DNA from: Candidatus Yonathbacteria bacterium
GTDB taxonomy: Bacteria > Patescibacteriota > Minisyncoccia > Phycocordibacterales > UBA1550
Direction of reading: 5' to 3'
Length of the DNA stretch: 64,000 nt
Assembly: GCA_003483855.1 (NCBI GenBank)
Contig: DMXP01000005.1
Location: 29,202-93,201, forward strand
The notes under the pieces are model-generated. The model did no database searches, was not told the origin of the DNA, and saw nothing but the letters and a program-made list of their open reading frames with translations. The position numbers and the translations under genes were made by a program. Within the stretch, counting starts at the first letter, position 1; every line of letters begins with the position of its first letter. Shown here one piece after another: positions 10,764 to 57,901 of this stretch.

Positions 10764-10766
10764 GAG

Positions 10767-15143: not shown

Positions 15144-16268
15144 CTATCCCACTATTCCGCCACCAATACACTCTTTCCCATCATACAAAACTACTGATTG
15201 CCCTGCGTCAAAAACTGCTGGCTTTTCGAGGCGCAATGAAAAAGAATTTTCATTAACACTAGCAATCTTGCATTTGTACTGCTCGCCGTGGTAGCGCACC
15301 TGCGCGGTATATTTCCTTGCAGTATCAGGAATCGTTCCACTACAAAAACTCGCCTGCTCGGCTCGTAGCTCCTGCGAGGCGCACCCCAGTGCCTTTTTTG
15401 TATGAGGTGCAACCGTAATTGTATTTTTTTCAAAATCTTTTGCCACAACATAGAGTGGCGCATCGTCAGTACCTTTCTTCGTAACCATAAATCCATGACG
15501 TTCGCCAAGCGTAAAAAAGTATGTGCCACGATGCGTACCGATTATCTCGCCTTTTCCATTCAGCACACTTCCCTCTTTCTCCTCAATATAGTTCGCGAGA
15601 AAATCCTTCATATCAAGCTTGCCCACAAAACACAGTCCTTGCGAATCTTTTTTCTCCGCAACTGGCAAACCAAACTTTTTCGCAAGAGCGCGCACTTGCG
15701 ACTTTTTGTAACCGCCAATCGGGAAAAATGTTTTGCTCAGCTGTTCCTTTCCTAGTGTCCACAAAAAATACGATTGATCCTTGGTATCATCAACTCCCTT
15801 TAGCATTCTGTGTTTGCATTCACTTTTGACTTTTGACTTTTGACTTCGAATCAGCTGATTCGCGTCTTGGACGCAGACTACCTTTGCGTAGTGTCCTGTC
15901 GCCACAAAGTCCGCTCCCTCTTTCATGGCTCGTCTAAAAAATGCGCCAAACTTTACCTCGCGGTTGCACATTACATCGGGGTTCGGCGTGCGACCCTGCC
16001 TGTACTCCGCAATCATATAATCCGCCACGCCTTCTTTGTATTCCTTTTCAAAATCCCACGTGAGGAGGGGGATGCCAAGGGGCGCAGAAACGCGCATTGC
16101 GTCCAAACGCTCCTCACGCCACGTGCATGGCAAAAAATCCGGTTGCCATACCTTCATAAAAACACCCGTAACATCGTACCCTGCTTTTTGTAAAAGCGCT
16201 GCAGAAACTGACGAATCCACTCCGCCTGACATTCCAACATATACTTTACCCTTCGACTTTCTATTCAT
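15144..16268 (-). CDS. mnmA: tRNA-specific 2-thiouridylase
   Basis: VYVGMSGGVDSSVSAALL (PP-loop), ...KDQSYFL..., and a C-terminal beta-barrel. Contains an in-frame repeat-derived insertion (see repeat 15823-15874). Confidence 0.9.
   Translation of the reverse strand: MNRKSKGKVYVGMSGGVDSSVSAALLQKAGYDVTGVFMKVWQPDFLPCTWREERLDAMRVSAPLGIPLLTWDFEKEYKEGVADYMIAEYRQGRTPNPDVMCNREVKFGAFFRRAMKEGADFVATGHYAKVVCVQDANQLIRSQKSKVKSECKHRMLKGVDDTKDQSYFLWTLGKEQLSKTFFPIGGYKKSQVRALAKKFGLPVAEKKDSQGLCFVGKLDMKDFLANYIEEKEGSVLNGKGEIIGTHRGTYFFTLGERHGFMVTKKGTDDAPLYVVAKDFEKNTITVAPHTKKALGCASQELRAEQASFCSGTIPDTARKYTAQVRYHGEQYKCKIASVNENSFSLRLEKPAVFDAGQSVVLYDGKECIGGGIVG
15823..15874. repeat. 3x ttttgac heptamer plus 27-bp double palindrome (gaatcagctgattc + cgtcttggacg) embedded in frame in mnmA
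   Basis: cacttttgacttttgacttttgacttcGAATCAGCTGATTCgCGTCTTGGACG. The same double palindrome occurs at 54743-54770 and 57053-57080. Confidence 0.55.
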
Positions 16269-16336
16269 TTGTTTACCCTACTTGAATACCATCAAAATCG
16301 CAACTCTAACAAACAATCAAGTTTTGCATTTCGCGC

Positions 16337-16372
16337 CCATTCCATGTTCTACATTCCAAATTCGACATTCTA
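16337..16372. repeat. degenerate NNcATTC heptamer array between mnmA and mltG
   Basis: ccattcc atgttc tacattc caaattc gacattc tatc. Confidence 0.3.
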
Positions 16373-17398
16373 TCTTAGATACTTCCCCTTGTTTACCACA
16401 TGCTCATCAAATGTTTTTGCGTAATGCATCGCGCCTTCTTTATCTGAAAGATAATACATAAAAGATGTTGCCGTTGGACTAATAGCCGCGCGAATAGCAA
16501 CAATGCCTGGGTTTCCAATAGGACCAGCAGGGAGACCTTTGTTTGTATATGTATTGTACGCTGATTTTATTTTTAGATCTGCAGTTGTAAGCTCGCTTGA
16601 TTTCTTGCCCAGTAGATACATAAATGTTGCGTCTACTTGAAGAGGCATTCCTTTTGAAATACGATTCCAAAGCACGCCTGACACTAGAGCCATATCCTCG
16701 GGATTAGAGGCTTCTCGTTCAAGTATAGATGCCATAATAATTATATCGCGCAATGAATGCTTTGATGTTTCAATCGCGCCAGACCATGGCTCTATTTTTT
16801 TATTAAAATTGTTAATCATTATTTGTTCTGCTTCCAATGCTGTAACATTTTCAGGGAAAAAATATGTGTCGGGAAAAAGGTATCCTTCCTGCGGACGCGC
16901 ATGTTCTAGAAAAAACACAGTATCAAAATTTGAAATATTTTTTTCTAAAACTACTGCTACTTCCTTGTTAGACATTCCCTCCGGGATAGTTACGCGTACC
17001 GCAGGAATTCCTGAGATGCTTCGCGCAATGCGTATTGCAATACGACAGGCAGAAATCGGTTCTTTAAAAAGATACTGCCCTGCGGACACAGGCTTTGCGC
17101 CTCCGACGAGCTTCGCGCAAGATTCAAAAAGACTCTGTGAGCGGATAAGATTTTCTTTTTCAAGGAGTGCGGAAACTTCTGTAAGTGAAGCGCCCTTCTT
17201 TACTGTAATCATTTTATTTTCTGGAAAACTAAATGGGGGCATTACACGAAAGGAGATGTACGCTGAAAAAAGGACAATTATAATAACAATAACAATCAAA
17301 ACTTTTGCTCCTCGCTCTTCTATGCCGAGCGAAGACAGAAACCTTGAAAAACGTCCTGCTTCTTCTTGTGTTACTTTTTCTTCTGGTGTTTTGTCCAT
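16370..17398 (-). CDS. mltG: endolytic murein transglycosylase (YceG/MltG family)
   Basis: C-terminal LQVDATFMYLLGKKSSELTTADLKIKSAYNTYTNKGLPAGPIGNPG is the YceG signature. One TM helix. Start trimmed to MDKTPEEK. Confidence 0.85.
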   Translation of the reverse strand: MDKTPEEKVTQEEAGRFSRFLSSLGIEERGAKVLIVIVIIIVLFSAYISFRVMPPFSFPENKMITVKKGASLTEVSALLEKENLIRSQSLFESCAKLVGGAKPVSAGQYLFKEPISACRIAIRIARSISGIPAVRVTIPEGMSNKEVAVVLEKNISNFDTVFFLEHARPQEGYLFPDTYFFPENVTALEAEQIMINNFNKKIEPWSGAIETSKHSLRDIIIMASILEREASNPEDMALVSGVLWNRISKGMPLQVDATFMYLLGKKSSELTTADLKIKSAYNTYTNKGLPAGPIGNPGIVAIRAAISPTATSFMYYLSDKEGAMHYAKTFDEHVVNKGKYLR

Positions 17399-17403: not shown

Positions 17404-18639
17404 TTAAATTGGCAAATTGACTGGCGCTTCTGACTTGCGTGAGGGAATACGACCGAATGTAGGTGTCTGCGCAACACCTCCTGGGAAGTGATAAATAGTG
17501 GCGAGCTCCTCTGTGGTAAGCACAAACGGTTTCAACTTGCGTGGCAAGTGGAACCACGAGCGTTGCTTGTAAGCTTCAAACATATCTACCTTTTTCCAAG
17601 TAAGACGCGTCTTGTCATAATCCTCCCACGGGAAATCCCATCCGTATGTTTGCTCACCACCTTTGAATGAGTTTAGATTGTTTGAAGTAAACGGGCGCAA
17701 TAGACCACCTAGCGCTTTTATATGACCAAAATCTGCTTTGTCCTTCTTCCCAAGATATATCGCGCGAATACCGCAATCAAAACCGAGCTTGTTTATACTA
17801 CGCTCAATAGCAGCAACGGCGTCTTGTTCGCCCTTGGTGGTCATAAAAAGTTTAGCAAAGCCTTCATCAGTTTTCTGGTCACGCTTCATTATCCTTTCGA
17901 TTAGCGCTTTCCCTTCATCTTGCCATGTACCAATACTGCTATCGGCTTTTTTATATCGCTTGCTTGCCGACTGAACAAGTATCTGAATCCAAATCTGCTC
18001 ATCCTTCCCAATTGACCCTAAGTACTCAATAATAGAAGTGATTGGATCAATTTTGAACTCCTCTTTCACACCCTCTTTGTCCATACCGTAGTCAACATAA
18101 GTTTTTATTGGATACGCGTCTTCTTTTGAGAGAGTGTATTCGGAGCTAATCATTTCCCATTCGCCCTTTTTGCCCCTGTAGTCCACATAGCGTGTGTAGT
18201 CTGGGACCTCGTGTATTTCTATATCAGGATACTGCGCGTAAAGTTGCGCCTCTATAACATTTTTATAAAATGCGCCTGTGCGAATAAAAAAGTGGACATT
18301 TCCATCTAGAGAAACCATCTCTAGAGAAAACCAATCCTTTACTTTTCCTTTCCAGTATTTGTCCCACCAAACAATCTTGCCGGATGACTGATAAAGCGCG
18401 TTTAACATAATCTCCATCGCAAGCGGAGTTTTGTGAATCTCCTTTGGAATCTTGACCTCGAGCATTATCCAATTGATGCGTGAGATATATCGCCCCTGCA
18501 CATAATGCATCCATTGATGCAAAAATAAATAACCTAGAAAAATCGGGCCCCAATAAGGGAACCATGCAAAAAAAGTTGATAGAAGAGAAACAACCTGCGC
18601 GTATAACTCGCTAAATCCGAGAGACTGAATTAAATCCAT
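17404..18639 (-). CDS. hypothetical membrane protein
   Basis: 412 aa from MDLIQSLGFSELY with two N-terminal TM helices. No recognisable domain. A predicted promoter sits immediately upstream. Confidence 0.55.
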   Translation of the reverse strand: MDLIQSLGFSELYAQVVSLLSTFFAWFPYWGPIFLGYLFLHQWMHYVQGRYISRINWIMLEVKIPKEIHKTPLAMEIMLNALYQSSGKIVWWDKYWKGKVKDWFSLEMVSLDGNVHFFIRTGAFYKNVIEAQLYAQYPDIEIHEVPDYTRYVDYRGKKGEWEMISSEYTLSKEDAYPIKTYVDYGMDKEGVKEEFKIDPITSIIEYLGSIGKDEQIWIQILVQSASKRYKKADSSIGTWQDEGKALIERIMKRDQKTDEGFAKLFMTTKGEQDAVAAIERSINKLGFDCGIRAIYLGKKDKADFGHIKALGGLLRPFTSNNLNSFKGGEQTYGWDFPWEDYDKTRLTWKKVDMFEAYKQRSWFHLPRKLKPFVLTTEELATIYHFPGGVAQTPTFGRIPSRKSEAPVNLPI

Positions 18640-25123: not shown

Positions 25124-26392
25124 ATGGATCAATTCACTGAAAAAACAGAAGTGCAACAGAAGGTAGCGTCAAAACTTGAAGTAAAGACAGACCACAGTCT
25201 TTCTGCTTGGGACCTGCTCAAACTCTCCCTTCGAGTTTTTCGCACAAAACCAACACGTACTATTTTAACAGTACTTGGTATGTCCGTTGGTATCGGTACT
25301 GTCGTTTTTCTTGTGTCTCTTGGTTATGGGCTTCAATACATTTTAATTGGTAACCTAATTACTAGCGAGGACTCCCTTATGACACTAGAAGCAGCATACC
25401 CAAGCGAAGCTGGAAAAAGTATTGACCTTGAGAAAATGGATGAAATAAAAACAATGGAGGAAGTGGACGCAATAAGCCCTGTCACAGAATTCTCTGGCGA
25501 ACTTTCTATTGCTGGTGGAGCTCCAGGCCTTATCCCTGTGACTCGTGTCGTTCGTTCATCATATTTTAGATATGCAGGAGTTTACCCAGATATTGGAGAT
25601 GTATTTAGCGAGGATAACCCTGGAGCTGTTTTATCAATACAAGCATTGAAACTTCTAGGCCTCAATGTAGATGAATCGATTATTGGGAAAGAGGTTTCTG
25701 GAAAAGTTTATTACCCAAAACAAGACGGAAGCACAGAAGAGGTAATTATTTCTAAACTGCAAATTCGTGGAGTTATTACTGACGAAAATGAACCGCCTCT
25801 TGCGTACATTCCCTACTATTCAGTCTCGAAAGAGCCAACTGCTCTCAAGAGTTTACTCATCAAAGCGCGTAATGTTGACCTTGTTGAACAACTGCGAGAT
25901 AAATTAGATAAAGAAGGTTTCCTCGTGAGCGCGAAAATTGACCTAGTGAATCAAGCGCGAAAAATCACAAACGCTATAACAGTAGTCCTTATGGTTTTTG
26001 GCACAGCCGCTCTTATCGTGTCCGCTATTGGAATGTTCAACACTATGATAGTCGGCTTTCTTGAACGTATTTACGAAGTGGGGGTTATGAAATCCCTCGG
26101 CGCGACAGACGGCGACGTGCAAAACCTGTTCCTTATGGAATCCTTCATCATCGGATTCTTGGGAGGGCTCTCTGGAGTCGCTATCGGTATGGGGGGAGGA
26201 TCAGCCATAAACTTTGTGATGAGTACTCTTTCTCAAAACCTAGGAAGCAAGGCACTTACACTTTTCATCACACCAGCGTGGTTTGCAATTTCAACTATTA
26301 TTCTTTCCTCGTGTATAGGAATTATTTCCGGCGCTTTGCCTGCAAGAAACGCATCCAAGCTCTCACCGAGAGAAGCATTCGTGAGAAAATAA
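25124..26392 (+). CDS. ABC transporter permease (FtsX/MacB-type)
   Basis: N-terminal TM, large periplasmic domain, then three C-terminal TM helices with the FtsX pattern (MKSLGATDGDVQNLF). Confidence 0.8.
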   Translation: MDQFTEKTEVQQKVASKLEVKTDHSLSAWDLLKLSLRVFRTKPTRTILTVLGMSVGIGTVVFLVSLGYGLQYILIGNLITSEDSLMTLEAAYPSEAGKSIDLEKMDEIKTMEEVDAISPVTEFSGELSIAGGAPGLIPVTRVVRSSYFRYAGVYPDIGDVFSEDNPGAVLSIQALKLLGLNVDESIIGKEVSGKVYYPKQDGSTEEVIISKLQIRGVITDENEPPLAYIPYYSVSKEPTALKSLLIKARNVDLVEQLRDKLDKEGFLVSAKIDLVNQARKITNAITVVLMVFGTAALIVSAIGMFNTMIVGFLERIYEVGVMKSLGATDGDVQNLFLMESFIIGFLGGLSGVAIGMGGGSAINFVMSTLSQNLGSKALTLFITPAWFAISTIILSSCIGIISGALPARNASKLSPREAFVRK

Positions 26393-26686
26393 AATCCGCT
26401 CACCATTTCCTTTTCTGTTGCACGCATAATTTTTTGCTAAAAATTTGACTCCAAGAGCGAACCAGCTGATTCGTCTGCTCGCCTCGCCAGGCTGTGCAAG
26501 GCACCAGAAAACGAAACGGCTCGCTCTGAGAAAAATCATGCGGTCGTCTTTTATGCAAAAAACAACCGCATCTGTTTAGGGTCTAAATTGCTCAAGGTGC
26601 GAGGCGTGGAATATTTTTACGCCCAAGACGTACACTCGTACGACGTGGGAGAAAAAATATTCCGCAACAAAGCAGATTGAGATAAC

Positions 26687-28142: not shown

Positions 28143-29144
28143 CTAATGCCCGCTGACTGCGCTGATGCATGCGTTGAACGCCTGCACGCCCGCATTGTAT
28201 GTTGCAACTGCAACTCTGTTTGCCTCTACGAGCGAGTTATATTGTGGCACCAGCGCGTTGTATTCATTTATATATGTATTGTAATTTGGATCATGTTGCG
28301 AAGTCGCATCAAGCAAGGCCTTTTTTGCGTCAAGCTTGGAACGCATGTCCGCTATCGTTGCGCTGGTTGAATCAATCTGAGCTTTGAGTGTTTGATCTGT
28401 TGCTGGACACGCTGACAATGGAAGCCCAAAACTTTGCACGGCGAGCCATGTCATATGACCATCATACATTCCTTTACCAACAGCAACGCCGATCTCCCTA
28501 TAATGCGTATTCAAAATATTCGCGCGATGACCGGGGCTGTTCATCCACGCGGTAACCACTCCAGCGTCGCCCGCAAAATCTCCTAGAGCGAGGTTTTCCC
28601 CTACTGTCACATATGCGTACCCGACAGCCTGAGCCAAGTCCGAAGGACCCACACCAGTTGGCGACACGTGTTCAAAGTATTGTTTTGCAAACATGTCATC
28701 AACCTTCATCTGCGCATCACGATTTAGAAGAGTATTTTCAGTAAGCGCAGGCAGTGCTCCATTTTGCGCTCGTTCTATGTTTGTGCGTTCTATTATTCCT
28801 CGCGCAGTAAGGTCTGTCGCGCTTGTAGTCTGTGTAATTGCCCGAAGTGGACCAGGAGTAACAACAGACTTCTCTACCACTGCCGTTTTTGGTACAAGAC
28901 TGCCGTTTGTCGCAGTTGCGGTTGTCGTTTTTGGTACGACCTTTTTTACTGTTGCTTGCGTGGATGTAGAAACAACTGTTTCTCGGCTTGGCCGTGGACT
29001 TAATTGCTCCTTTTTCGCAACAACTGGCATTTCTTGCGCTATTTCTCTCGGCGCAAAAGTCTCCCCGAGGTACGTGTACGAAAGCGCTCCCGCTCCTATG
29101 AGCGCCAAAATTCCCGCGAGAATTTTTATTATTGATGCCAGCAT
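28143..29144 (-). CDS. CAP/SCP (PR-1-like) domain protein with N-terminal TM anchor
   Basis: C-terminal GENLALGDFAGDAGVVTAWMNSPGHRANILNTHYREIGVAVG matches the bacterial SCP/YkwD pattern. Confidence 0.7.
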   Translation of the reverse strand: MLASIIKILAGILALIGAGALSYTYLGETFAPREIAQEMPVVAKKEQLSPRPSRETVVSTSTQATVKKVVPKTTTATATNGSLVPKTAVVEKSVVTPGPLRAITQTTSATDLTARGIIERTNIERAQNGALPALTENTLLNRDAQMKVDDMFAKQYFEHVSPTGVGPSDLAQAVGYAYVTVGENLALGDFAGDAGVVTAWMNSPGHRANILNTHYREIGVAVGKGMYDGHMTWLAVQSFGLPLSACPATDQTLKAQIDSTSATIADMRSKLDAKKALLDATSQHDPNYNTYINEYNALVPQYNSLVEANRVAVATYNAGVQAFNACISAVSGH

Positions 29145-31433: not shown

Positions 31434-32834
<1,401 letters not shown>

Positions 32835-32959
32835 CTAATAAATCTTCCTCAATTAGTCTGAACTCTATCATTTTTTACCCAAAAAACCAAGCCAAAAAAA
32901 GGAGAATTTGGGATGTGGATAACTCAACCTATAAAAGTTGCCGTTTATTCGCAGATAGT

Positions 32960-33025
32960 ATATATTATAGGTATTAGGGCTTCGGCCTCCGAGATACCCG
33001 TCACCGCAAGGTGGCGGGTATCGAT
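32960..33025 (+). ncRNA. candidate plus-strand structured RNA (UUCG and GCAA tetraloop hairpins) antisense to the mazF-like 3-prime end
   Basis: ggc-TTCG-gcc hairpin at 32978-32987. An 8-bp + 4-bp stem capped by GCAA at 32993-33023. Preceded by TTGCCG-17nt-TATATT (32936-32964). The canonical tetraloops exist only on the plus strand. Confidence 0.25.
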
Positions 33026-33041
33026 GTTTACGGACGAGCCC

Positions 33042-33455
33042 TTAGGTATATATTCGGAAGGCTTCAACTACTCTATCAAATTCACTTTGATTAACAGTGT
33101 CCACCTTACGCAATAACCTATTATTACTAATCACGCGTGCTTGAGTAAGTTTAATCCAGACAGGCTTCGTATATTCCTCTTCCGTTTTACTATTTTTAGC
33201 TTGTATCTGAATCTCATAATGAAAGCCATCTAGTTTCTCTTTGCTCGTTATCGGTAGCACGAGCATGGTTTCTTTATTATACACTCGCACAACCAAAACT
33301 GGCCGTTCAAAATTTTCATTTTTGCCATCAACTTCTGCTCCGACATTTACACCAAGAGCGCACCACCATACTTCACGAGGATACGCATACGCTTTCTTTC
33401 CCGAATCACCTAAATTCTTTTTCTGTGAATTCCAAGCATCAAACTCTTTTTTCAT
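33042..33455 (-). CDS. MazF/PemK-family endoribonuclease toxin-like protein (no adjacent antitoxin gene)
   Basis: YPREVWWCALGVNVGAEVDGKNENFERPVLVVRVYN...MLVLPITSKEK...LTQARVISNNRLLRKVDTVNQSEFDRVVEAF aligns with MazF/PemK (RGDVY.ADL.PVVGSEQGGVRPVLVIQND...LEQIRTIDKQRL..). Confidence 0.75.
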   Translation of the reverse strand: MKKEFDAWNSQKKNLGDSGKKAYAYPREVWWCALGVNVGAEVDGKNENFERPVLVVRVYNKETMLVLPITSKEKLDGFHYEIQIQAKNSKTEEEYTKPVWIKLTQARVISNNRLLRKVDTVNQSEFDRVVEAFRIYT

Positions 33456-33591
33456 ATAGGCTCAATTATATCACGATTAATTATAGATAATTAAAGGTAC
33501 CTGACACCTTTCCCCTCCTTTTCTTCATATAGACATAACAAACTCCCAGCAATTGCTGAGAGTTTGTTATTAAATACACAGACCCCTTTAC

Positions 33592-34272
33592 TTATTTAAC
33601 GACCGCAGCATCCAACACAGCCTGCGCCTCCACATTCCCATTCTTTGAGGAGAGGGTTACCTCTGTAGGGGTAACAACGCCTCCAGAAGGAGGTAACACT
33701 GCTACTGATTTTATTTCATTCTCTATATCAGAAACAAAGCGACTTCCACTAAACATTTTGTGTAAATGCGCCAACTCTTCATCCCCTACGCCAATTTCTC
33801 CATTAACACTTACGGTGTATTTCCCTTGCGTCCAACCATTTACCGTAAACGCACCCAAGGAATCTCTTGTTAGGAAAACGAGGACACGATCGCCAGCCTT
33901 AAACGAAGGAGACCCTTCGACAATCATTTTTGTACCGCTTACCGAACCACCAAGAGTTTGAACAGCTAGCGTTTGAGAGGTGATGTTTTCTGGGTTATAA
34001 AGATACTTTTCAACCTCCAAAGTTACTGTAGAAACTATATCTTCTTCTCCTTCTCTAATTTTTGATGGATACTTACCACTTCGCACACTGCTTACCCTTG
34101 CAATAAGAGCCACTGTAGAACTTCTAATAAGCTCTTCTTTACTAATTTCAGCCAAAACTGCGTGCCCAACCACCGATGTCGTTTGGCTTGCTCTGGGTAA
34201 AAAAACATACACTCCCATACTTGCACCAATCACTACTAGCGAAATAATAACGGGCGAGATATTTCTTTTCAT
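33592..34272 (-). CDS. secreted hypothetical protein (signal peptide)
   Basis: MKRNISPVIISLVVIGASMGVYVFL signal or anchor. No recognisable domain. Confidence 0.55.
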   Translation of the reverse strand: MKRNISPVIISLVVIGASMGVYVFLPRASQTTSVVGHAVLAEISKEELIRSSTVALIARVSSVRSGKYPSKIREGEEDIVSTVTLEVEKYLYNPENITSQTLAVQTLGGSVSGTKMIVEGSPSFKAGDRVLVFLTRDSLGAFTVNGWTQGKYTVSVNGEIGVGDEELAHLHKMFSGSRFVSDIENEIKSVAVLPPSGGVVTPTEVTLSSKNGNVEAQAVLDAAVVK

Positions 34273-34311
34273 AAGTTGCGAGATAAATTAATTATTAATT
34301 AAAGACAAAAA

Positions 34312-34872
34312 TTAAGGGTACACGGCGTTTATTCCACTCAAGTCATCCGCAACGAGAGTACGCTTTTTAGTTTCACCAGTTCCGACATAGCCATACATCG
34401 TTTTTTCTGTATCTCCGCCACCATATAAGTCATTCAACATAAGAAAATGCCCGAATTCATGCGTTGCGACATTCTGCACATCATACAATCCAGGAGCCCC
34501 AGAAGTTGACCATGAGTAATAACTATTAAACACTAGATCGGTGTCTGTTATTGTAGACCCAGAAGAAGTAACTGTTGTTAGGGCAAGTGCTCCTGCGCCA
34601 AAATTTGAAACAGTGATATCGTTGTTTGATGTTCCAGCAGAAAAAGTAAACGGCGACGATGCCCCATTCCAAGGAGTCATCCCTTGTGCAATCGGTGTAA
34701 TCCACGAACTTGGTATACTTGGACTTCCAAAATCAGCAGTGGTTCCATTTGTTGACCACTTTACGCCAGCATATGAATATGCAGAAACGAATGACGGGAT
34801 CATTAAAACCAGCAACATCGTACCAAAACCAAAACTGAACATTTTTTTGAGAATTAACGTATTTCGAAGCAT
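34312..34872 (-). CDS. secreted zinc metalloprotease, snapalysin/matrixin-like (HExxHxxxxxD)
   Basis: Signal peptide, then ATHEFGHFLMLNDLY. This reads H-E-F-G-H-x5-D, the spacing of the snapalysin M7 zinc site HETGHVLGLPD. Confidence 0.7.
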   Translation of the reverse strand: MLRNTLILKKMFSFGFGTMLLVLMIPSFVSAYSYAGVKWSTNGTTADFGSPSIPSSWITPIAQGMTPWNGASSPFTFSAGTSNNDITVSNFGAGALALTTVTSSGSTITDTDLVFNSYYSWSTSGAPGLYDVQNVATHEFGHFLMLNDLYGGGDTEKTMYGYVGTGETKKRTLVADDLSGINAVYP

Positions 34873-35060
34873 AATTGAATTATTTATTAATTTTACATTG
34901 ATAGTATCTGCGCATCGACCATTACACTACAGTGTAGTAAAAAAAACTGGGTTTAGTAAATCCGCAACTGTGGACAACCTAAAAACCATTGAATAACCAC
35001 GGAACCGAAGCTAGTCACAGATAGGAAACGGGTACGGTTCACTGTCTCATTATATTTTAC

Positions 35061-35232
35061 CACTCCCCACTCCTCGTGCGAGGGATGCCTCTTGTGTGGG
35101 GACTTGCGAGCGTGAACCCAGGGTCATTCTGCTGAATGAGACGCTCACACGAGGACGATTTAGTAAAATCGCTCTTGGAGCTTTTCTAGCAAGAAAATAT
35201 CCGTACCCCGCACAAGACGGCTCCCGAGCTAT
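35061..35232. repeat. copy B of a ~170-bp palindromic (MITE-like) structured element
   Basis: Shares cctcttgtg[c/t]ggggacttgcga...cacgaggacgatttag[c/t]aaaatcgc...gcttttcta...atatccgtacc...cacaagacg...cccgagc with 53918-54086. The arms are mutually complementary. Confidence 0.5.
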
Positions 35233-36155
35233 TTCATCGCTTCAATCCCCCCGATAATCTCACTCATCTCTCTTGTAATCGCGCCTTGTCGGGCTTTGTT
35301 GTACTGACGCGTGAGTGAGAATGTAACTTCCTCGGCCTTGTCAGAAGCATTTCGCATCGCGACCATTCGCGCCGAATGCTCGGACGCCTTTGCTTCCAGA
35401 AAAGCATGGTGGAGTTCAATAGCGAGAAGTCGCGGAATGAGTGTCTCAAACACCGCCTCTGGCGATGGCTCAAACAAATAGTCAGCCGGCGCCGATTCCT
35501 TTTCAATATCAACATTTGTTTCGGCAAACGCGCCCTTCTCTGGCACGATGCCCTTTATCATTGTTGTGAGTCCCTCCACAGAGAGGGGGAGCAACGAGCG
35601 CGAAACTGGTTCCTGTTCAAATGTTGAGCGAAAGTTTGTGTACACTAGCATACACTCGTCGTACTTCCCATTTGTAAACAAGTCAGTAATGAGCGACACG
35701 ACCCCAGAAAAATCACCGATGGCGCTTTCGTCTTTCATTGTTTCAATATGCTTTTCCATAATATACCCTCGGCGCGCAAAAAATTCTTCCCCTTTGCGAC
35801 CGATAGCAATAACACCTGTGTTCTCGCGAGAAATGTATCTGTCCGAGAGAGAAGACAGGGCGCACTTTGTAGCCCCACTGTTCAGTCCTCCAGCAAGCCC
35901 TTTGTCGCTCGTCACAATAACAAGGAGAATGCGACTCACTGGACGCACAGCTACGAGTGGGTGACGAGCAATATCAACTGAGTGCGAGATGCGAGAAAGA
36001 ATACGAAATGCCGCCATAGCATATGGACGCGCTGTAAGCGCGGACAACTGCGCCTTGCGCATTTTTACACCAGAAACAGCCTCCATAGCTTTTGTGACTT
36101 GGTGCGTCTTTTGCACAGAGCGTATTTTTCCTTTTATCGCGCGGAGGGATGACAT
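35229..36155 (-). CDS. atpG: ATP synthase gamma subunit
   Basis: MSSLRAIKGKIRSVQKTHQVTKAMEAVSGVKMRKAQ and C-terminal ITREMSEIIGG. Confidence 0.9.
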   Translation of the reverse strand: MSSLRAIKGKIRSVQKTHQVTKAMEAVSGVKMRKAQLSALTARPYAMAAFRILSRISHSVDIARHPLVAVRPVSRILLVIVTSDKGLAGGLNSGATKCALSSLSDRYISRENTGVIAIGRKGEEFFARRGYIMEKHIETMKDESAIGDFSGVVSLITDLFTNGKYDECMLVYTNFRSTFEQEPVSRSLLPLSVEGLTTMIKGIVPEKGAFAETNVDIEKESAPADYLFEPSPEAVFETLIPRLLAIELHHAFLEAKASEHSARMVAMRNASDKAEEVTFSLTRQYNKARQGAITREMSEIIGGIEAMK

Positions 36156-37773: not shown

Positions 37774-38205
37774 TTAATTAGTAATGTCTCGATAAAGTTC
37801 TACGAGGGATTTTTTGTAACTGCCGTCTATCAGAGTGTCTTTTGTTCTTATTTGAAACCCTCCAACTATTGTTTCGTCCACTACATCACGGCGTGTCGCG
37901 CCTTTGCGTATAACTCCTTCTTTTTCATAATGGTCATACGCATGCGCCCACTTGCTCACACTCTTGTTGTCAGCAGTTACTAGGAGGACTTCGTTCCTAT
38001 CTCTTTCACGCGACATTATTTTTTCAAGTTCATGAGCGACAAAAGGTAGCAACCTTTCATGTCCGCGCGCTGAGACTACCTTGCGAAAGCGAGCAAAGAT
38101 TTTTTTAGAATCGCTATCGGACTCGAGCAAGCTTGCTCGTGGCTTGGCCATAGACATATTTTGTAACGCTCCATAAAGCGCCTCTGCGTACCATGATGCT
38201 TTCAT
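37774..38205 (-). CDS. atpH: ATP synthase delta (OSCP) subunit
   Basis: 143 aa, in the position expected between atpF and atpA. Confidence 0.8.
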
Positions 38206-42859: not shown

Positions 42860-43198
42860 CTTTCGATTCTCCTCGGAGTCACACAATAGCAAAAGATGTC
42901 CCGAGGCTCTCGGTCACGGGTTACTAATTAATTTTTGGATAGCCTCGTCGTGTACGACAGGTCTAAGACTAGCGTGTGGTCAACACGTAAGTAATTTTGC
43001 TAAATCAAAGTCACTAAGTCTACTCGTGTGTCGCGTTTCAATCGACACTACGCGACGCGATTTTGCAAAATCGACACTGCGTGGACGTAAGTGCTCGCGA
43101 CCCCAGAGTCCAAGATTAGGGCCAAGCCCCGAATTTGTTAATTCGAAATCTGCAGATTCGTCGTGGTTTTGCGTGCTCGCAAAACATCACTGCGCTTT
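42860..43198. repeat. mosaic noncoding repeats next to tRNA-Ala, including a 45-bp segment repeated at 57660-57704
   Basis: 43116-43160 ttagggccaagccccgaatttgttaattcgaaatctgcagattcg is near-identical to 57660-57704. An inverted partial copy of the tRNA-Ala T-arm (ttcgattctcctcgg) lies at 42866-42880. aatcgacact is duplicated. Confidence 0.45.
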
Positions 43199-43239: not shown

Positions 43240-43313
43240 TGGACCCGAGGAGAATCGAACTCCTTACCTCCGGAGTGCAAAACCGGCGCTCTAGCCAGGT
43301 GAGCTACGGGCCC
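43240..43313 (-). tRNA. tRNA-Ala (anticodon TGC)
   Basis: Cloverleaf GGGCCCG-TA-GCTC...GAGC-G-CCGGT-TTTGCAC-TCCGG-AGGTA-AGGAG-TTCGATT-CTCCT-CGGGTCC-A. The G3:U70 identity pair is present. Confidence 0.9.
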
Positions 43314-44591: not shown

Positions 44592-44672
44592 GCCGGAATG
44601 GTGGAATGGTATACACGTGCGACTCAAAATCGCATGCCGCAAGGCTTGTGGGTTCAAGTCCCACTTCCGGCA
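44592..44672 (+). tRNA. tRNA-Leu (anticodon CAA)
   Basis: GCCGGAA-TG-GTG...CAC-G-TGCGA-CTCAAAA-TCGCA, a 13-nt variable arm, GTGGG-TTCAAGT-CCCAC-TTCCGGC-A. Confidence 0.9.
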
Positions 44673-46530: not shown

Positions 46531-46803
46531 GCGGGCCCACGAGTCCGCGGTCCCGAGTTACTAAGTATTTTTCCACACTTCGTGTTCAAAAATCCTAAGT
46601 GTTCGCGACCACGCCTCGGCGACCCAGTGAGTACACTGTGTGCTCCCGATTTCTTAGGTTGTACTCAACCTCTTGAAATCGCAGTGCCCTAGATTTATCG
46701 TGGCCCCGCCTGCGGTTTTCGAGTCCTCGTGGGCCTAGCAGTAACAACAAACCCCAAACACTGTCGTGTTTGGGGTTTGTTACTGCGGGCCCACGAGGAC
46801 TCG
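46531..46803. repeat. noncoding repeat region containing an 84-bp near-perfect palindrome (46720-46803) that incorporates the tRNA-Trp 3-prime end
   Basis: cgagtcctcgtgggcc-tagca-gtaacaacaaaccccaaacac-tgtc-gtgtttggggtttgttac-tgc-gggcccacgaggactcg. A third degenerate copy gcgggcccacgagtccgcgg lies at 46531-46550. ccgagttactaagtat and gttcgcgaccacgc are shared with other tRNA-flanking regions. Confidence 0.45.
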
Positions 46804-46856
46804 AACCTCGGTCTGCGCGTTTGGAGTGCGATATTCTACCACTGAACTATAGGCCC
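46786..46856 (-). tRNA. tRNA-Trp (anticodon CCA), with an unusually weak anticodon stem
   Basis: GGGCCTA-TA-GTTC-AGTGGTA-GAAT-A-TCGCA-CTCCAAA-CGCGC-AGAC-CGAGG-TTCGAGT-CCTCG-TGGGCCC-G. It sits directly downstream of rpmG, the classic rpmG-tRNA-Trp position. Only 3 Watson-Crick pairs in the anticodon stem. Confidence 0.6.
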
Positions 46857-50932: not shown

Positions 50933-50949
50933 TTGAATTGAATGTTGAC

Positions 50950-50990
50950 GAATTAGCAAATTCGCGCCTGGCGCTATCGAATATTGAATG
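50950..50990 (-). promoter_or_regulatory. palindromic GAATT-n4-AATTC plus CATTCAATATTC motif pair upstream of clpB
   Basis: Coding-strand reading: cattcaatattcgat...cgaatttgctaattcg...aacattcaattcaa then ATG. The same two motifs precede the HtrA-like gene. Confidence 0.35.
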
Positions 50991-51060: not shown

Positions 51061-51903
51061 CTATATAATCTTCTCAGGATCAGCAAGGGCTGTTTTCGTG
51101 GCTTCATTAATGAGCCTTTTTGCTTCTGTCACAGGTACTCCATACTGAGAACCAGTGCTTTCATCAATATTCAAAAAACCAATAATTTCGCCGTTCAAAT
51201 TAATGATAGGCGCGCCGTTTGATGTGCCGGCAAAGCGCATGGAGATTGCGATATTGTCCAAAATCTTCGTTTCAACTTTTGTTTCCTTGTCAACAACAGC
51301 GCGCGTATCAAGGCTTGTGATAATTCCAGTTGAAATCGTTTTTCCGTCACGACCGGCGATGACAAGTGAAGTTTGCCCAAGTTTTAGTGTGTCGGGATTC
51401 CCAAACGCGACAGTGTTAAACTTTGGTGTTGATGTTGCTGACACTGGCACAAGGCGACCAAGACCTAACGAGTTTGCCTTATTGTTTGAAATAACTTCAA
51501 GAGTGTATTGGATTCCATTGATTGTCGTATAGAGTACACCAAGTCCAAGATTCCAACGAGCTGTTATCACAAGTCCATCAGGAGACACAATCGTTCCCAC
51601 CCCTGCAGAAAGAACACCTCCATCACCAATCTCCGCCTTAAAAGGAATAATGTTATTTATGTTTTTATCGATAGCCACCACGAGTAGGTCTTCATCTTTA
51701 ACCACAACAGTTGCACCCGGCTTATCTACAAAAGTAGGAGTAATCTTTTCTATCGTGCGCTCAACCACGTTGGTTATCGTTTGATTTACTGGGTCAGGCG
51801 CCTGATCCATAAGTGTAACTACAACGATTCCTGTTGCCATTGATGCAACAAAACTAACGAAAAGTGTGAGTAAAACTATTTGCGCTTTTGTGAGATGCTC
51901 CAT
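51061..51903 (-). CDS. trypsin-like serine protease (HtrA/DegP S1C core, no PDZ) with N-terminal TM
   Basis: SAGVGTIVSPDGLVITARWNL...GNSGGPLI-like region (GTSNGAPIINLNGEIIGF). 280 aa. Confidence 0.75.
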   Translation of the reverse strand: MEHLTKAQIVLLTLFVSFVASMATGIVVVTLMDQAPDPVNQTITNVVERTIEKITPTFVDKPGATVVVKDEDLLVVAIDKNINNIIPFKAEIGDGGVLSAGVGTIVSPDGLVITARWNLGLGVLYTTINGIQYTLEVISNNKANSLGLGRLVPVSATSTPKFNTVAFGNPDTLKLGQTSLVIAGRDGKTISTGIITSLDTRAVVDKETKVETKILDNIAISMRFAGTSNGAPIINLNGEIIGFLNIDESTGSQYGVPVTEAKRLINEATKTALADPEKII

Positions 51904-51907
51904 AGGG

Positions 51908-51956
51908 TTGAATATTGAATGTTGAATTAGCGTCCAAGACGTGAATTTGTTAATTC
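51908..51956 (-). promoter_or_regulatory. CATTCAATATTC heptamers + cgtccaagacg palindrome + GAATT-n4-AATTC palindrome upstream of the HtrA-like gene
   Basis: Coding-strand reading: gaattaacaaattc-acgtcttggacg-ctaattcaacattcaatattcaaccct then ATG. Confidence 0.35.
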
Positions 51957-52023
51957 AAGAATGTAGAACAAATGCGGATACAAATACTCTCAATTCTTTA
52001 TTATTGTAATTGTACAGCCTTGT

Positions 52024-53810: not shown

Positions 53811-53917
53811 CCCGACATCATATCCCGCGAGTCAATTGTTTTCAATAGTTGAACCCAACCTTGGTCTTTCTGGCGAGGCGGTCTTCCTATTTACCAGCAA
53901 TGCAAAATAAGCATTGG

Positions 53918-54086
53918 GTTCCCCTCCTTGGCGAGGAATGTCTCTTGTGCGGGGACTTGCGAAAGCGACGGCTTGAGCACGAGGACGATTTAGCAAAATC
54001 GCACCTTGGGCTTTTCTAAAATAAATATCCGTACCTCATTCACCAGAATGACCTACGGGCAAGTCCACAAGACGACATCCGAGCAG
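53918..54086. repeat. copy A of the ~170-bp palindromic (MITE-like) structured element
   Basis: Aligns with 35061-35232. A 20-30 nt module present in the left arm of copy B (ggtcattctgctgaatgag) appears here as its reverse complement in the right arm (ctcattcaccagaatgacc). Confidence 0.5.
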
Positions 54087-54285
54087 TTTTTGCAAAAATC
54101 CTTAAAATGTGGTACATTTTCGGAACCTCCTCTCTAAAATAGTGCTGAGATGAAAGGTTTTAATTTCGTAGCGAGAATTTCAAGACGCGAAGAGGTGAAG
54201 CGAGCTTCATTGATGAGTGCCTTGAAATTTGTAGTAGAAATTTAAGCCTTATCAGCCAGCAATATTTTAGAGGGCGGTTCCTAAT

Positions 54286-54753
54286 ATGACACCAGAAGCT
54301 CTACAAATAACCGTTATCGTATTGAGCGTTATCATGATAGCGCTCTCTGCATTGGTTTTTGTATTAGAGCGTCGTATGAAAAAGCTACTCGCGGGGAAAG
54401 ACGCATTGAGTCTTGAGGAAACAATTGTAGCCCTGGGCAAAGACATTCGCGCTCTGGAAAAGTTTCAGTCAGATACGGAGAACTACATTACTGATTCAAA
54501 CAGACGCATCAAGCGAAGCATTCAAGGTGTTGAGACAATTCGTTTCAACGCTTTCAAAGGCAACGGTGAAGGAGGAAACCAAAGTTTCGCAATCGCGCTC
54601 CTGTCTGAAAATGGCGATGGAACGGTAATCTCCTCCCTCTTCGCTCGCGACCGAATGAGCATCTTTGCAAAGCCCATCAAAAACTTCACTTCCGAACTTG
54701 AAATGACAGACGAAGAAAAGGACGCGGTCAAACGCGCGACACCGAATCAGTAG
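54286..54753 (+). CDS. DUF4446-like small membrane protein
   Basis: N-terminal TM, then ...RFNAFKGNGEGGNQSFAIALLSENGDG... Its stop codon lies inside the 27-bp double-palindrome element. Confidence 0.55.
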   Translation: MTPEALQITVIVLSVIMIALSALVFVLERRMKKLLAGKDALSLEETIVALGKDIRALEKFQSDTENYITDSNRRIKRSIQGVETIRFNAFKGNGEGGNQSFAIALLSENGDGTVISSLFARDRMSIFAKPIKNFTSELEMTDEEKDAVKRATPNQ

Positions 54754-54770
54754 ATTCGCGTCTTGGACGT
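54743..54770. repeat. 27-bp double palindrome (gaatcagtagattc + cgtcttggacg)
   Basis: Same element as 15846-15874 and 57053-57080. Confidence 0.45.
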
Positions 54771-54819: not shown

Positions 54820-56355
54820 ATGACAAAAAATTCCACATCAAAAATAATTCCACGTCCGCCCATTGTTGTTATCATGGGGCATATTGACCATGGAAAGTCA
54901 TCGCTCCTTGACTACGTCCGCAAGACAAACGTTGTTGAGGGAGAAGCTGGTGGCATTACTCAGCACATTTCTGCATACGAGGTGTCACACCATCTTGACC
55001 AAACGCGAAAAGATGCGCTCGCGAGCAACCGCATCACTTTTCTAGATACTCCGGGGCACGAAGCTTTTTCAAAAATGCGCGCTCGTGGCGCAGGGGTAGC
55101 GGACATTGCTATTCTTGTAGTCTCAGCAGAAGACGGTGTGAAGGAGCAAACAAAAGAGGCGCTTCGTTCTATTAAAGAGGCCGGCATCCCGTACATTGTC
55201 GCCATCAATAAAATAGACAAGCCAAACGCAAACATTGAGCGCACAAAACAAAATCTCGCTGAGAACGAAATCTATCTTGAGGGATTCGGCGGTGACGTGC
55301 CATTCGTACCAATCTCTGCAAAGCTCGGCACCGGTGTGCCAGACCTTTTGGATATGATGCTTCTTGTTGCAGAAATGGAGAACCTTACAGGCGACACATC
55401 GCTTCCAGCAGAAGGAATTGTGGTGGAGTCAAACATTGATACAAAACGTGGCACATCCGCAACTCTCATCATTACAAATGGCACACTCAAAAAAGGAATG
55501 TTCATTCTCGCAGAGGAAAGCATGTCCCCTGTGCGCGTGATTGAAAACTTTCTAGGCAAGCAAGTTTCCGAAGCAACATTCTCATCCCCTGTTCAGATTA
55601 CCGGCTTTGACGCTCTCCCTGCTGTAGGAAGCACTTTCCGCGCGTACGCAAACAAAAAAGATGCTGAGAAGGTTCAGCTTGAACTCAGGGAAGCAAAGAG
55701 CAAGGAAAAAGTGAAGGAGATTGTGCGGACAATCCCGCTCGCAGACGACGCGCTTGTCGTGCCTATTGTTTTGAAATCAGACGTCGCAGGTACCCTTGAA
55801 GCGATTGAAAAAGAACTTGCTAAAATTGAGCGCGAGCGTGTTGTAATAAAAATCATCGCGAAGGGTGTCGGCACTATCGGTGAAAACGACGCGAAGCTCG
55901 CTTCTGGTTCAGACAGCGCCATCATCATTGGCTTCCACACAAAGGTAGAGCGTGGCGCACAAGATATTGCGGAGCGCTTTGGCATCACTATCAAAACTTT
56001 TGATATCATCTACAAACTTTCAGAGTGGTTAAACGAGGAGCTAGATCGTCGCACACCTAAAGTTATGGGCGAGGAAGTTGTTGGTATGGCAAAAATTCTC
56101 AAAACATTCAGCGCCACAAAGCACAAGCAGGTTATTGGTGGAAAGGTAACTTCAGGCACGCTTGAAGTTGGCGCGCAGGTAAAGATTATGCGTCGCGATG
56201 TTGAAATCGGTCGCGGAAAAATTGAAGGTCTCCAAGCGCAAAAACTTCCAGCGAAAAAAGTTGAGGAAGGAAACGAGTGCGGAATGATGATAGACGGAAA
56301 AATTGAAATTGCCGGCGGTGACGTGCTTGAAGCTTTTGTGATGAACGCCAAATAA
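54820..56355 (+). CDS. infB: translation initiation factor IF-2 (short form: G domain to C-terminus)
   Basis: [46 protein letters not shown]. Start trimmed to MTKNSTSK. The long N-terminal domains of canonical IF-2 are absent. Confidence 0.9.
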
Positions 56356-56526
56356 AGGCCACTCGCTAAATTCTTTTTAGGGTACGACTTTTTTGAAGCT
56401 TAAAAAAATCTGAAGTTTTCGCGCCGTCGCGCTCAAAACCCCCTAAAAAGCAATTTAGCTCGCTCTGAGTTAGGGGAGCCGACTTAAATTACGAATTGTG
56501 GTAGTATAAAAAATAATAAGAAAATC

Positions 56527-57052: not shown

Positions 57053-57080
57053 ACGTCCAAGACGTGAATCAGCTGATTCA
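57053..57080. repeat. 27-bp double palindrome (cgtccaagacg + gaatcagctgattc), inverted order relative to 54743-54770, abutting tRNA-Cys
   Basis: cgtccaagacgtgaatcagctgattc. Confidence 0.45.
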
Positions 57081-57152
57081 GGCGTGGTAGCCAAGTGGTA
57101 AGGCAGTGGTTTGCAAAACCTCTACACGCGAGTTCGATTCTCGCCCACGCCT
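57081..57152 (+). tRNA. tRNA-Cys (anticodon GCA)
   Basis: GGCGTGG-TA-GCC...GGC-A-GTGGT-TTGCAAA-ACCTC-TACAC-GCGAG-TTCGATT-CTCGC-CCACGCC-T. The discriminator is U. Confidence 0.88.
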
Positions 57153-57418
57153 CAAAGAAAATTCTGTTAAGAATTTTCTTGGCGTGGGAGCAGGTAAACT
57201 GCTTTGCCTGCGTCGGGTCCTAAATTTCGCACAACTTTGTTGTGCGAAATCTTACGACATGATTTTTGAAGCGCAAAAATCAGAATCGAAGGGCGGAGCA
57301 TGTCGCTTGCGACAGCGAGCCGGGGTCGCGAACACTTTGTAGTTTTCAAGCGAAGCGAAGAAAAATACTTAGTGATTCGTGACCGAGAGCGCCCACGCCT
57401 CAAGAAACAATTAAATAC
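57153..57418 (+). repeat. hairpin-dense spacer between tRNA-Cys and tRNA-Leu carrying tRNA-flanking mosaic motifs
   Basis: gaaaattct-gtta-agaattttc (57161-57182), tttcgcacaac-ttt-gttgtgcgaaa (57226-57250), gcgagccggggtcgcgaacac, agcgaagcgaag and aaaaatacttagtgattcgtgacc are shared with 44709-44930, 46531-46610 and 57597-57704. Confidence 0.4.
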
Positions 57419-57499
57419 GTCCGGGTGGTGGAATGGTATACACAGGAGACTTAAAATTTCCCGCCGTAAGGCTTATGGGTTCGAGTCCCATCCCGGACA
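57419..57499 (+). tRNA. tRNA-Leu (anticodon TAA)
   Basis: GTCCGGG-TG-GTG...CAC-A-GGAGA-CTTAAAA-TTTCC, a 13-nt variable arm, ATGGG-TTCGAGT-CCCAT-CCCGGAC-A. Confidence 0.88.
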
Positions 57500-57720
57500 C
57501 AAAATTAACAAGCGGAAAGCGATAGCTTTTTGCGACTGTAATTTTGTAGTCCGGGATGGGACTCGAAAGCCGGAGGCGGGCACCTTGTGTAATCACAAGG
57601 TCGCTGAGGCGGGGTCGCGAGTACTTAGGAGCGAAGCGACTTAGTAACTCGGGCCAAGCTTAGGGCCAAGCCCCGAATTTGTTAATTCGAAATCTGCTGA
57701 TTCGTGACCGCGGACCATCC
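57500..57720 (+). repeat. post-tRNA-Leu noncoding repeats: inverted copy of the tRNA 3-prime end and the 45-bp segment shared with 43116-43160
   Basis: gtagtccgggatgggactcgaaagcc (57547-57572) is the reverse complement of the tRNA-Leu T-arm and acceptor. 57660-57704 ttagggccaagccccgaatttgttaattcgaaatctgctgattcg. Confidence 0.45.
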
Positions 57721-57807
57721 CTGTATTACCAAACAAGATTTGCCGAGCAAGCTAGTCCAATTGTAACAAACAAAAACACCCATAAGGGGTGTCTATGTTT
57801 ATATTTG

Positions 57808-57890: not shown

Positions 57891-57901
57891 ACTTCGCCCT
57901 G

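Follow-up and report, generated by a model that had tools for sequence, protein, structure and literature searches.

The 64-kb stretch of a Candidatus Yonathbacteria genome considered here (hereafter the window, at its full length) contains two look-alike stretches of palindromic intergenic DNA, at 35061-35232 (copy B) and 53918-54086 (copy A), and the question they raise is what such elements are, how they reached their positions and what keeps them there. [quoted passage not shown] Our results show that they are members of an undescribed, ~105-base non-coding repeat family of Candidatus Yonathbacteria and close relatives; the Yonathbacteria are Parcubacteria within the candidate phyla radiation, and the window's cysteine desulfurase shows 100% identity to a protein of Candidatus Yonathbacteria. 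We consider it probable that the family consists of non-autonomous mobile repeats whose movement or persistence depends on their fold, and which probably have effects on transcript 3' ends.

The resemblance between the two stretches is real, and all shared blocks listed in the first-pass annotation are present at their places, but the similarity begins ~15 nt further 5' (GCGAGGRATGYC) and the cores are found at 35078-35229 and 53931-54084. Chance had been regarded as an unlikely source of the resemblance, and this is borne out: the two copies score 77-104 bits (E ~1e-19 to 1e-26) with a covariance model trained on 13 distinct copies and scored in two versions, R1 and R2, and the element occurs in other genomes. 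The count of two copies was incomplete, as the model finds four copies in the window, i.e., the two reported ones and two more diverged ones at 56351-56464(-) and 26388-26525(-). A covariance scan of the window with filters off gave no significant match beyond these four.

A wider search for copies and a scan of Rfam, both proposed with the first-pass annotation, gave a family in the first case and no match in the second. Two independent exact-pattern scans recovered eight genuine family members in reference genomes (one Yonathbacteria genome has three, a second has two and the rest are elsewhere) and 11 in metagenome contigs, and the covariance model yielded extra, diverged copies from the later loci L030-L035 (L-numbers, L002-L037, denote loci from other genomes or metagenome contigs). 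In total, the family has ~19 distinct copies, distributed over ~13 genomic sites and at least 10 genomes or metagenome contigs of Yonathbacteria-like organisms; this is a small and partly related set. L012, L019, L023-L025 and L029 were chance pattern matches and not family members, and a phage origin was rejected because the sole match in a viral contig was judged to be chance. Genes were called by a simple open reading frame (ORF) procedure and identified by Pfam. The taxonomic labels of metagenome-assembled genomes are possibly wrong; the L010 contig, which carries one copy, is labelled Saccharibacteria. At gathering scores, Rfam finds only eight tRNAs in the whole window, and permissive scans of both loci reach at best E = 0.29-0.52 (17-18 bits, against cut-offs of 39-59). 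A full-text literature search found no such repeats described for the candidate phyla radiation.

The copies are non-coding, range from 103 to 165 nt and occur at a density of four per 64 kb in the window. The minimal unit is ~105 nt long, as exemplified by the L007 copy (GCGAGGGAUGCCUCUUGUGCGGGGACUUGCGAGCGUGACGACGCGAGCACGAGGAAUUUUUCAGCAGAAAAAUAUCCGUACCCCGCACAAGACGGCUCCCGAGC), and it has terminal inverted repeats, as expected of a MITE: the 5' arm GCGAGGGATGCCTCTTGTGCGGGGAC pairs with the 3' arm (~25 nt each) to form P1, a stem of ~25 bp that closes a three-way junction whose other two arms are the short hairpins P2 and P3. The P2 hairpin has 4 bp and is flanked by GA/GA, P3 has the sequence UUUUUC-AGCA-GAAAAA and is closed by GGA/UCC, and a conserved CGAG/CGAG tandem G·A motif is found both at P2 and at the outer end of P1. 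The first-pass annotation had proposed that the complementary 5' and 3' blocks fold each copy into a long hairpin. This complementarity is confirmed, and on the + strand both copies fold as closed multi-stem structures (z = -3.8 and -4.6) which no shuffle equals; the - strand of both reported copies folds too. In an alignment of 16 sequences, 94.7% of the cells are paired and compensatory two-sided changes occur at 23 of the 37 pairs, while none of 500 shuffles matches this pairing and slid controls drop to 37-54%. The P2 variants (GCGU/ACGC, GUGU/ACAC, GCGC/GCGC, AGC/GCU and GCCU/AGGC), those of P3 and the wholly different P1 sequences of three subfamilies can be read directly in the raw sequences.

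The two strands do not fold equally well. The sense-strand fold is stabler than its complement in all 16 copies, by 6 kcal/mol on average and by 8-15 kcal/mol in subfamilies II and III, and the conserved stem mismatches are G·A on the model-sense strand and tandem U·C on the complement. Because of this stability and the G·A mismatches, constraint most likely acts on the sense-strand structure, either as RNA or as single-stranded DNA. An assignment of the strand from wobble pairs was dropped, with 15 G·U against 12 A·C, and the elements are not simple intrinsic terminators as far as the terminator scanner is concerned, since it does not call them.

Placement relative to genes follows a rule as well. 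At 11-12 of the 13 sites, the abutting gene is convergent with the element and lies on its 3' side, and where the neighbour gene could be checked, the abutting stop codon is inside the 10-nt tail of the model at all sites but one. The spacer from stop codon to element is exactly 5 nt at 7-9 sites, all of which have an A at +4. Counted to the GAGC end of the element, it is 5 nt at infB (window, 56.4 kb), at the gene for an FtsX-like permease (window, 26.4 kb, and L033), and at those for PilB (L005), PilC (L020), ribosomal protein S1 (L027) and a 109-amino-acid protein (L006), as well as at atpG of L035. The sequences of L010 and of the second L008 copy probably have the same 5-nt spacer, although these loci end before the gene. 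A sugar transferase gene (L008) has a spacer of 3 nt, and atpG at copy B and in L007, L011 and L030 has spacers of -1 to +1 nt. The first-pass annotation had placed both copies upstream of stress or secreted-protein genes, on the coding strand, but the rule for the family is instead a position just past the stop codon of an opposite-strand gene (atpG, infB, FtsX-like, PilB, PilC, S1 and others). A leader or riboswitch of the cysteine desulfurase-sodA genes or of the peptidase gene was rejected on account of promoter position and heterogeneous neighbours. For copy A, a promoter-like site, TTGAAA-17-TATGAT (53817-53845, -), sits between element and cysteine desulfurase gene and ends 6 nt before the ATG; copy A is therefore not the leader of this gene.

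The far-side neighbours are mostly on the strand of the abutting gene, i.e., the element lies antisense within co-directional gene strings. Within 30 kb of the window, elements are found in both orientations and in either case run antisense to the gene beside them, and the orientation rule therefore follows genes and not one direction of replication. Sequence preference together with neutrality cannot explain the association with stop codons either, because only 14 of the 170 non-coding TARADD sites in the window, which match the local flank motif, are stop codons (8%). Three further ideas were rejected. The element does not supply the stop codon, since in relatives lacking it, infB, FtsX and atpG terminate at the same residue. 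It does not appear to provide a read-through extension, as the frame is open in subfamily I but stops after ~15 codons in II and III, and the peptides read from the sequences are unrelated. Lastly, GCTCG after stop codons is not a general gene-end signal, being found at 9 of 70 genes only, mostly by chance or in element-bearing genes. On the other side of the element, a canonical intrinsic terminator ends 7-12 nt 5' of it at four sites (window 26.4 kb, L006, L027 and L033), which leaves no room for a private promoter at these sites. Judged by sequence, copy B and the 56.4-kb copy may be followed on the gene strand by candidate extended -10 promoters; the scanner did not call them.

Pairwise comparison divides the copies into three subfamilies (I, II and III). 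At the atpG stop codon, subfamily I is found in the window, L007 and L011, subfamily II in L035 and subfamily III in L030, and the site is empty in L033 and L036, where the atpG-atpD spacers are 36 and 34 nt. At the FtsX stop codon, subfamily II is found in L033, subfamily III in the window and subfamily I in none; L035 is empty with a 66-nt spacer, and L030, L036 and L037 have other DNA there. L030 is a close relative, with an FtsX protein 96% identical to that of the window. The copy between infB and rbfA is missing from the same spacer in L002, L003 and L004. Related genomes thus differ in presence or in subfamily at atpG, FtsX and infB-rbfA, as expected of MITEs. Several genomes retain copies A and B at the corresponding positions. 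Within subfamily II, the copies at infB (window), atpG (L035) and FtsX (L033) are 94-98% identical; the third window copy, at infB, and the L035 atpG copy are 98% identical at non-orthologous sites. The FtsX and atpG genes of the window and L035 are 74-77% identical overall and ~48-50% identical at third codon positions. Near-identity of the elements amid such diverged genes therefore indicates that they either moved between lineages recently or are under an unusually strict constraint on sequence.

Two of the gene junctions occupied by the family are also rich in accessory DNA. The atpG-atpD junction is a hot spot (window 32817-35228; L030 19191-19371; L033 20562-20596; L035 17394-18180) and contains a peptidase M10 gene and two ORFs in the window, a PemK toxin gene in L035, and other small ORFs in L007 and L011; in L033 and L036 it is bare (34-36 nt). 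A similar picture is seen at the FtsX-YchF junction: L033 has a ParE toxin module there, small ORFs of other kinds occur in L030, L036 and L037, and L035 has just a bidirectional terminator. L002 and L004 have a gene for a 91-amino-acid zinc-ribbon protein at the cysteine desulfurase locus. In L004 (GCA_030649835.1, 9440-10000), the spacer has another long hairpin, GCGAGGAACGAAGCAA...TTGCTTCG...TTCCTCGC, followed by a T run, in place of the element, and a match limited to P2 and P3 (26.8 bits) lies at 17641-17696; both may be decayed or recombined copies.

The label MITE-like proposed in the first-pass annotation is apt in that the family is repeated, non-coding, palindrome-ended and structured and shows turnover and spread, but no target-site duplication was detected. 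The longest words shared by the two flanks do not exceed those of mismatched pairs in length (permutation p = 0.28), and duplications seen by eye (GATTTT, GTATTT and CTTTA) were discarded since the T-rich flanks match equally well in mismatched pairs. At atpG, the filled site of L035 (CTCTG[element]GGTTT) compared with the empty sites of L036 (CCTGTG|GGCTG) and L033 (CTTGTG|GGTTG) has no duplication. The pentamer CTYNR precedes the element at ~9 of 13 sites (1/64 expected) and is present in the empty atpG sites. The element ends pair with each other and do not form separate subterminal hairpins, unlike those of IS200/IS605. At the FtsX site, two subfamilies have identical junctions.

Together, these features suggest how the repeats might move and persist. 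The element would spread within and between genomes and insert without a detectable duplication, often just 3' of CTYNR, and would be retained almost solely within a few nt of the stop codon of an opposite-strand gene. The conservation of the fold across subfamilies, its strand asymmetry and the absence of detected duplications suggest that the element is moved or recognised as a folded single strand. The mover might be a trans-acting enzyme of the HUH/Y1 type or another non-DDE enzyme, as for REPIN/RAYT or IS200/IS605 derivatives; a DDE transposase is unlikely. Copies would persist at gene ends either because of a selective filter or because they are beneficial. On the mRNA, a ~25-bp stem 5 nt past the stop codon could protect the 3' end or serve as an RNase III site, along the lines suggested for REP and Correia elements. 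The stabler strand would present a terminator-like hairpin with a U-rich tail facing the gene end, the complement of the stop codon being part of that tail, and could block antisense transcription that comes from the next promoter into the gene.

Several points weigh against this mobile reading or limit how far it can be taken. The exact 5-nt spacing to the stop codon is unexplained by known insertion mechanisms and points to function, and a replication-strand bias of the IS200/IS605 type does not by itself explain how the elements are oriented. A transposase, RAYT or parent insertion sequence with matching ends has not been tied to the family, although none was sought, and neither an excision product nor a strain-level insertion polymorphism has been seen directly. 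An rve-family gene in L031 was considered as the parent element and rejected, as there are no inverted repeats around it. Moreover, the filled/empty comparison concerns one locus with short, diverged flanks, and the identical FtsX junctions fit gene conversion or site-specific insertion as well as they fit independent transposition. Copies that are nearly identical in diverged genomes could in principle be the product of a very strong constraint on their sequence and not of transfer. As for the fold, the pair counts come from an alignment that was fitted to the model and contains related sequences, and the wobble pairs of the model alignment do not settle the strand.

The same evidence can be read as that of host genes or signals. 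The copies might be paralogous small-RNA genes, transcribed from the sense strand convergently with the neighbouring gene and slightly overlapping its 3' end, in which P1 and a UUUAUU tail serve as terminator; the RNA would act in cis as antisense to the mRNA 3' end or in trans, e.g., as a protein sponge through its five CGAG motifs. Such genes would agree with the stabler sense strand of all 16 copies, its tandem G·A motifs and G·U closing pairs, the U-rich stretch past the 3' end and the conserved sites of copies A and B, and -10-like hexamers precede some copies (TGCTATATT in L030; TATATT in copy B and in the second L008 copy, 7623-7760). However, no promoter is conserved in sequence or position, the four upstream terminators leave no promoter room, and the U-rich tail is mostly the complement of the stop codon and last codons of the neighbour. 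As the turnover of sites and the 98% identity at non-orthologous sites would also be unexpected for ordinary small-RNA genes, we regard this explanation as unlikely. If the mRNA strand is considered instead, the element could be a host-beneficial part of the 3' untranslated region or of intercistronic spacers, repeatedly recruited, with its stem 5 nt past the stop codon at the mRNA entry of the terminating ribosome, where it would act in 3'-end protection, RNase III processing or modulation of termination. The exact spacing at 7-9 genes with A at +4, compared with 8% for sequence-matched sites, argues for such a role, as does the use of the same gene ends by different subfamilies. The element sits in co-directional strings (atpG, infB-rbfA and pilB-pilC), and the mRNA strand is therefore very likely transcribed through it; a canonical terminator follows on this strand at 3-4 sites. 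Still, the mRNA-strand fold is the less stable one in every copy and has U·C where the other strand has G·A, close relatives lack the element at the same genes, copy A is not beside a stop codon, and the atpG spacing is -1 to +1 in subfamilies I and III; we consider this function improbable.

A third possibility is a DNA recombination site like the attC sites of integrons, through which accessory cassettes would integrate beside core genes. An imperfect palindrome that directly follows an ORF and whose conserved non-Watson-Crick positions fall on the antisense strand would fit, as would the variable accessory genes that adjoin the element (peptidase M10, PemK, ParE, zinc-ribbon and small ORFs). 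Yet the core sites RYYYAAC and GTTRRRY are missing from the termini, inserted genes are not each followed by a copy, and copies and cassettes occur separately: infB-rbfA, the window FtsX site and L030 atpG have a copy without a cassette, and, at the same hot spots, the FtsX site of L030, L036 and L037 has cassettes without a copy. No integrase has been tied to the element either, and none was sought, and we consider an attC-like site very unlikely. A bolder version of the mobile reading is that the element homes, antisense and without duplication, to the nucleotides just past stop codons in a fold-dependent and possibly guide-like manner, and then becomes a docking or boundary site for accessory cassettes (PemK, ParE and peptidase) which enter core operons in genomes of the candidate phyla radiation. 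We think this quite improbable, but if true, it would represent a mobile system targeting gene ends without a described counterpart. Non-autonomous mobile repeats with fold-dependent movement or persistence remain our preferred interpretation of the family.

The four window copies illustrate these properties in their gene neighbourhoods. Copy B (subfamily I, + strand) reads GCGAG...CGAGC, with P1 arms at 35078-35103 and 35204-35229, and its model match covers 35077-35239(+) with 101-104 bits. It lies between atpG (35229-36155, -) and the peptidase M10 gene, the atpG stop codon (35229-35231, -) overlaps its final base, and its orthologues are found in L007 and L011. The ATP synthase operon is split here by ~2.4 kb, in the order atpA, atpG, the insert with copy B, and then atpD (31434-32816). 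Copy A (subfamily I, + strand; model match 53930-54094(+), 76-77 bits) occupies the divergent spacer between a cysteine desulfurase gene (IscS/NifS-like, -), which is followed by sodA (-), and a DUF4446 gene (+), which is followed by infB (+); orthologues are found in the same spacer in L002 and L003. It is the single site that does not adjoin a stop codon. Its 3' end abuts the -35 of a putative DUF4446 promoter (TTGCAA 54090-54095, TACATT 54113-54118), which was proposed from conserved sequence and was not called by the promoter scan. A conserved TGTGG-TAnnnT, i.e., a TRTG-type extended -10, is found before DUF4446 (54090-54118, +) and rbfA (~56470-56526, +), and on the other side of the spacer, the position of the cysteine desulfurase promoter suggests a leaderless mRNA.

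The third copy (subfamily II, 56361-56463, -) lies between infB and rbfA, with a model match at 56351-56464(-) of 55.6 bits (R1) and 84.7 bits (R2), and the infB stop codon (56353-56355, +) is 5 nt from its GAGT end. The fourth copy (subfamily III, 26398-26524, -; match 26388-26525(-), 50.6 bits with R1 and 80.4 bits with R2) has an embedded double hairpin, is related to the L030 atpG copy at 82-85%, and has the stop codon of the FtsX-like permease gene (26390-26392, +) 5 nt from its GAGC end. A canonical intrinsic terminator with a hairpin and GATTTTT (26538-26571, -) ends 12 nt (GATTTTTCTCAG) 5' of this copy on the element sense strand. At the other end of infB (54751-54765), the TAG stop codon of DUF4446 is in the first loop, and the TTG at 54763 is the second loop, of a double-hairpin repeat. 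This TTG opens the longest infB ORF, but the true start is probably further downstream, because IF-2 has 493-511 amino acids in relatives versus 530 here.

The reported copies are 150-165 nt long because small hairpin modules are inserted into the basic ~105-nt unit. A mini-hairpin of ~25 nt, CATTC-NNNN-GAATG, is found in the P2 loop of copy B (35116-35140, +) and is missing in L007 and L011; the same mini-hairpin, reversed and together with GGGCAAGTC, is found in the P1 3' strand of copy A (54036-54065, +) and is missing in L002 and L003. In copy A, the insert re-pairs with GGACTTGC and remodels the inner stem. The reversed module GGTCATTCTGNTGAATGA noted in the first-pass annotation was confirmed at 35122-35139(+) and 54036-54053(-), which are the only matches in the window (0.26 expected). 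It had been explained by a larger perfect palindrome from which each copy lost one side. This explanation does not stand, as the orthologous copies, of which L007 and L011 correspond to B and L002 and L003 to A, are shorter (~105-137 nt) and have no CATTC hairpin; the CATTC module (~25-30 nt) was therefore gained in this lineage, entering P2 of one copy and P1 of the other in opposite orientations.

A second module, a ~26-nt double hairpin, is found in copy B between junction J2/3 and P3 (35156-35181, +; CGATTTAGTAAAATCG and CTCTTGGAGC) and in copy A (53986-54011, +). The same module recurs in L003, L006, the second L008 copy (7623-7760) and the window copy at 26.4 kb, and L006 carries CGAATCAGCTGATTCG where copy B has its double hairpin. 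A 27-nt double hairpin of the same architecture as the copy B module is also dispersed in the window, with a 6-bp stem and 4-nt loop followed by a 4-bp stem and an invariant TTG loop, e.g., CGAATCAGCTGATTCG-CGTCTTGGACG. It occurs on the + strand at 15847-15873, 28968-28994, 38124-38150 and 54743-54769, on the - strand at 43119-43145, 51931-51957, 57054-57080 and 57663-57689, and as a variant at 50947-50975. Both of its stems covary between copies, and the module is embedded in three of the four large elements. The dispersed copies are mostly found just upstream of gene starts or beside tRNAs, in either orientation, and Rfam has no match for this repeat.

Other repeats were observed in the window as well. 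A hairpin of ~65 nt at 32975-33041 starts 2 nt past the stop codon of a 137-amino-acid ORF (33042-33455, -). It reads TAA-GG-GCTCG... on the gene strand and ...CCGAG-(ATACCCGTCACC GCAA GGTGGCGGGTAT)-CGA...CGAGCCC on the + strand; its CGAG flanks and antisense placement are as in the large element, and it may be a smaller relative, although the covariance model misses it. The eight tRNA genes (43240-43313, 44592-44672, 46786-46856 and 57081-58113) include five clustered at 57-58 kb. A 52-nt repeat with a double hairpin, 96% identical between 43110-43161 and 57654-57705, is located ~80-105 nt past the 3' terminus of the closest - strand tRNA gene (43240-43313 and 57808-57890, respectively), and tRNA-flanking sequences are also repeated in inverted orientation (I1, I4 and I7). 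Short arrays of the 7-nt unit TACATTC / GAATGTA are found at 62208-62270 and 16336-16377, with related inverted copies at 10748-10805 and 51903-51927.

Interspersed repeats of this small, structured kind are familiar from a few cultivated bacteria. The present family indicates that the ~1-Mb, tightly packed genomes of the candidate phyla radiation still carry, exchange and tolerate mobile non-coding DNA, and it marks hot spots (atpG|atpD and FtsX|YchF) where accessory genes come and go. A near-fixed distance of 5 nt to the stop codon, a strict antisense orientation and a fold conserved across subfamilies are untypical of MITEs; these three features therefore make the family a testable case of either fold-dependent targeting or recruitment as a gene-end signal. 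Transcription termination is poorly understood in the host organisms. The covariance model can be used for annotation, helps to avoid spurious calls of ORFs and small RNAs, and provides a strain-level marker in groundwater metagenomes.

Compared with known systems, the family fails the duplication test of classical MITEs and has neither REP heads nor attC core sites. It resembles the Correia/CREE and ERIC MITEs in length (~100-160 bp), terminal inverted repeats of ~25 bp and presence in multiple copies, and, like them, represents transcribed intergenic DNA with a long duplex that RNase III could cut; however, those elements have TA duplications and insert in either orientation. The bcr1 repeats of the Bacillus cereus group (Okstad 2004; Klevan 2007; reviewed in PMC3184786) are likewise intergenic and non-coding, ~100-155 bp long and not conserved in distribution between strains, and have a multi-stem fold with compensatory changes (PMC3184786). 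They are flanked by 5-bp direct repeats and form a cruciform of two independent stem-loops, whereas our family forms a three-way junction closed by its termini and has no detected direct repeats; a rule for stop spacing or antisense orientation is not described for bcr1 in PMC3184786. The pneumococcal BOX elements share a modular build with optional inserted units, and SPRITE elements share a long stem with a U-rich tract, a location near the 3' ends of coding sequences and the lack of a demonstrable duplication (PMC3049150). Both belong to another host phylum and are unrelated in sequence, and SPRITE is a simple 18-bp hairpin whose terminator-like strand follows the abutting gene, whereas that of our family faces it.

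REPIN/REP elements (RAYT, Y1/HUH) and palindrome-associated elements derived from IS200/IS605 differ from the family in that no RAYT or TnpA gene has been tied to it, although none was sought. According to a passage in PMC3733652, REP arms are 20-40 nt long with GTAG or CGTC heads. The arms of our family end in GCGAG/GCTCG, its centre is a conserved branched structure and not a spacer, and its orientation follows the local gene and not replication. With these REPIN and IS200/IS605-derived elements, the family nevertheless shares inverted arms that form a long single-strand hairpin, the lack of a detected target duplication, a short conserved flank, an extragenic position at gene 3' ends and a non-autonomous nature.

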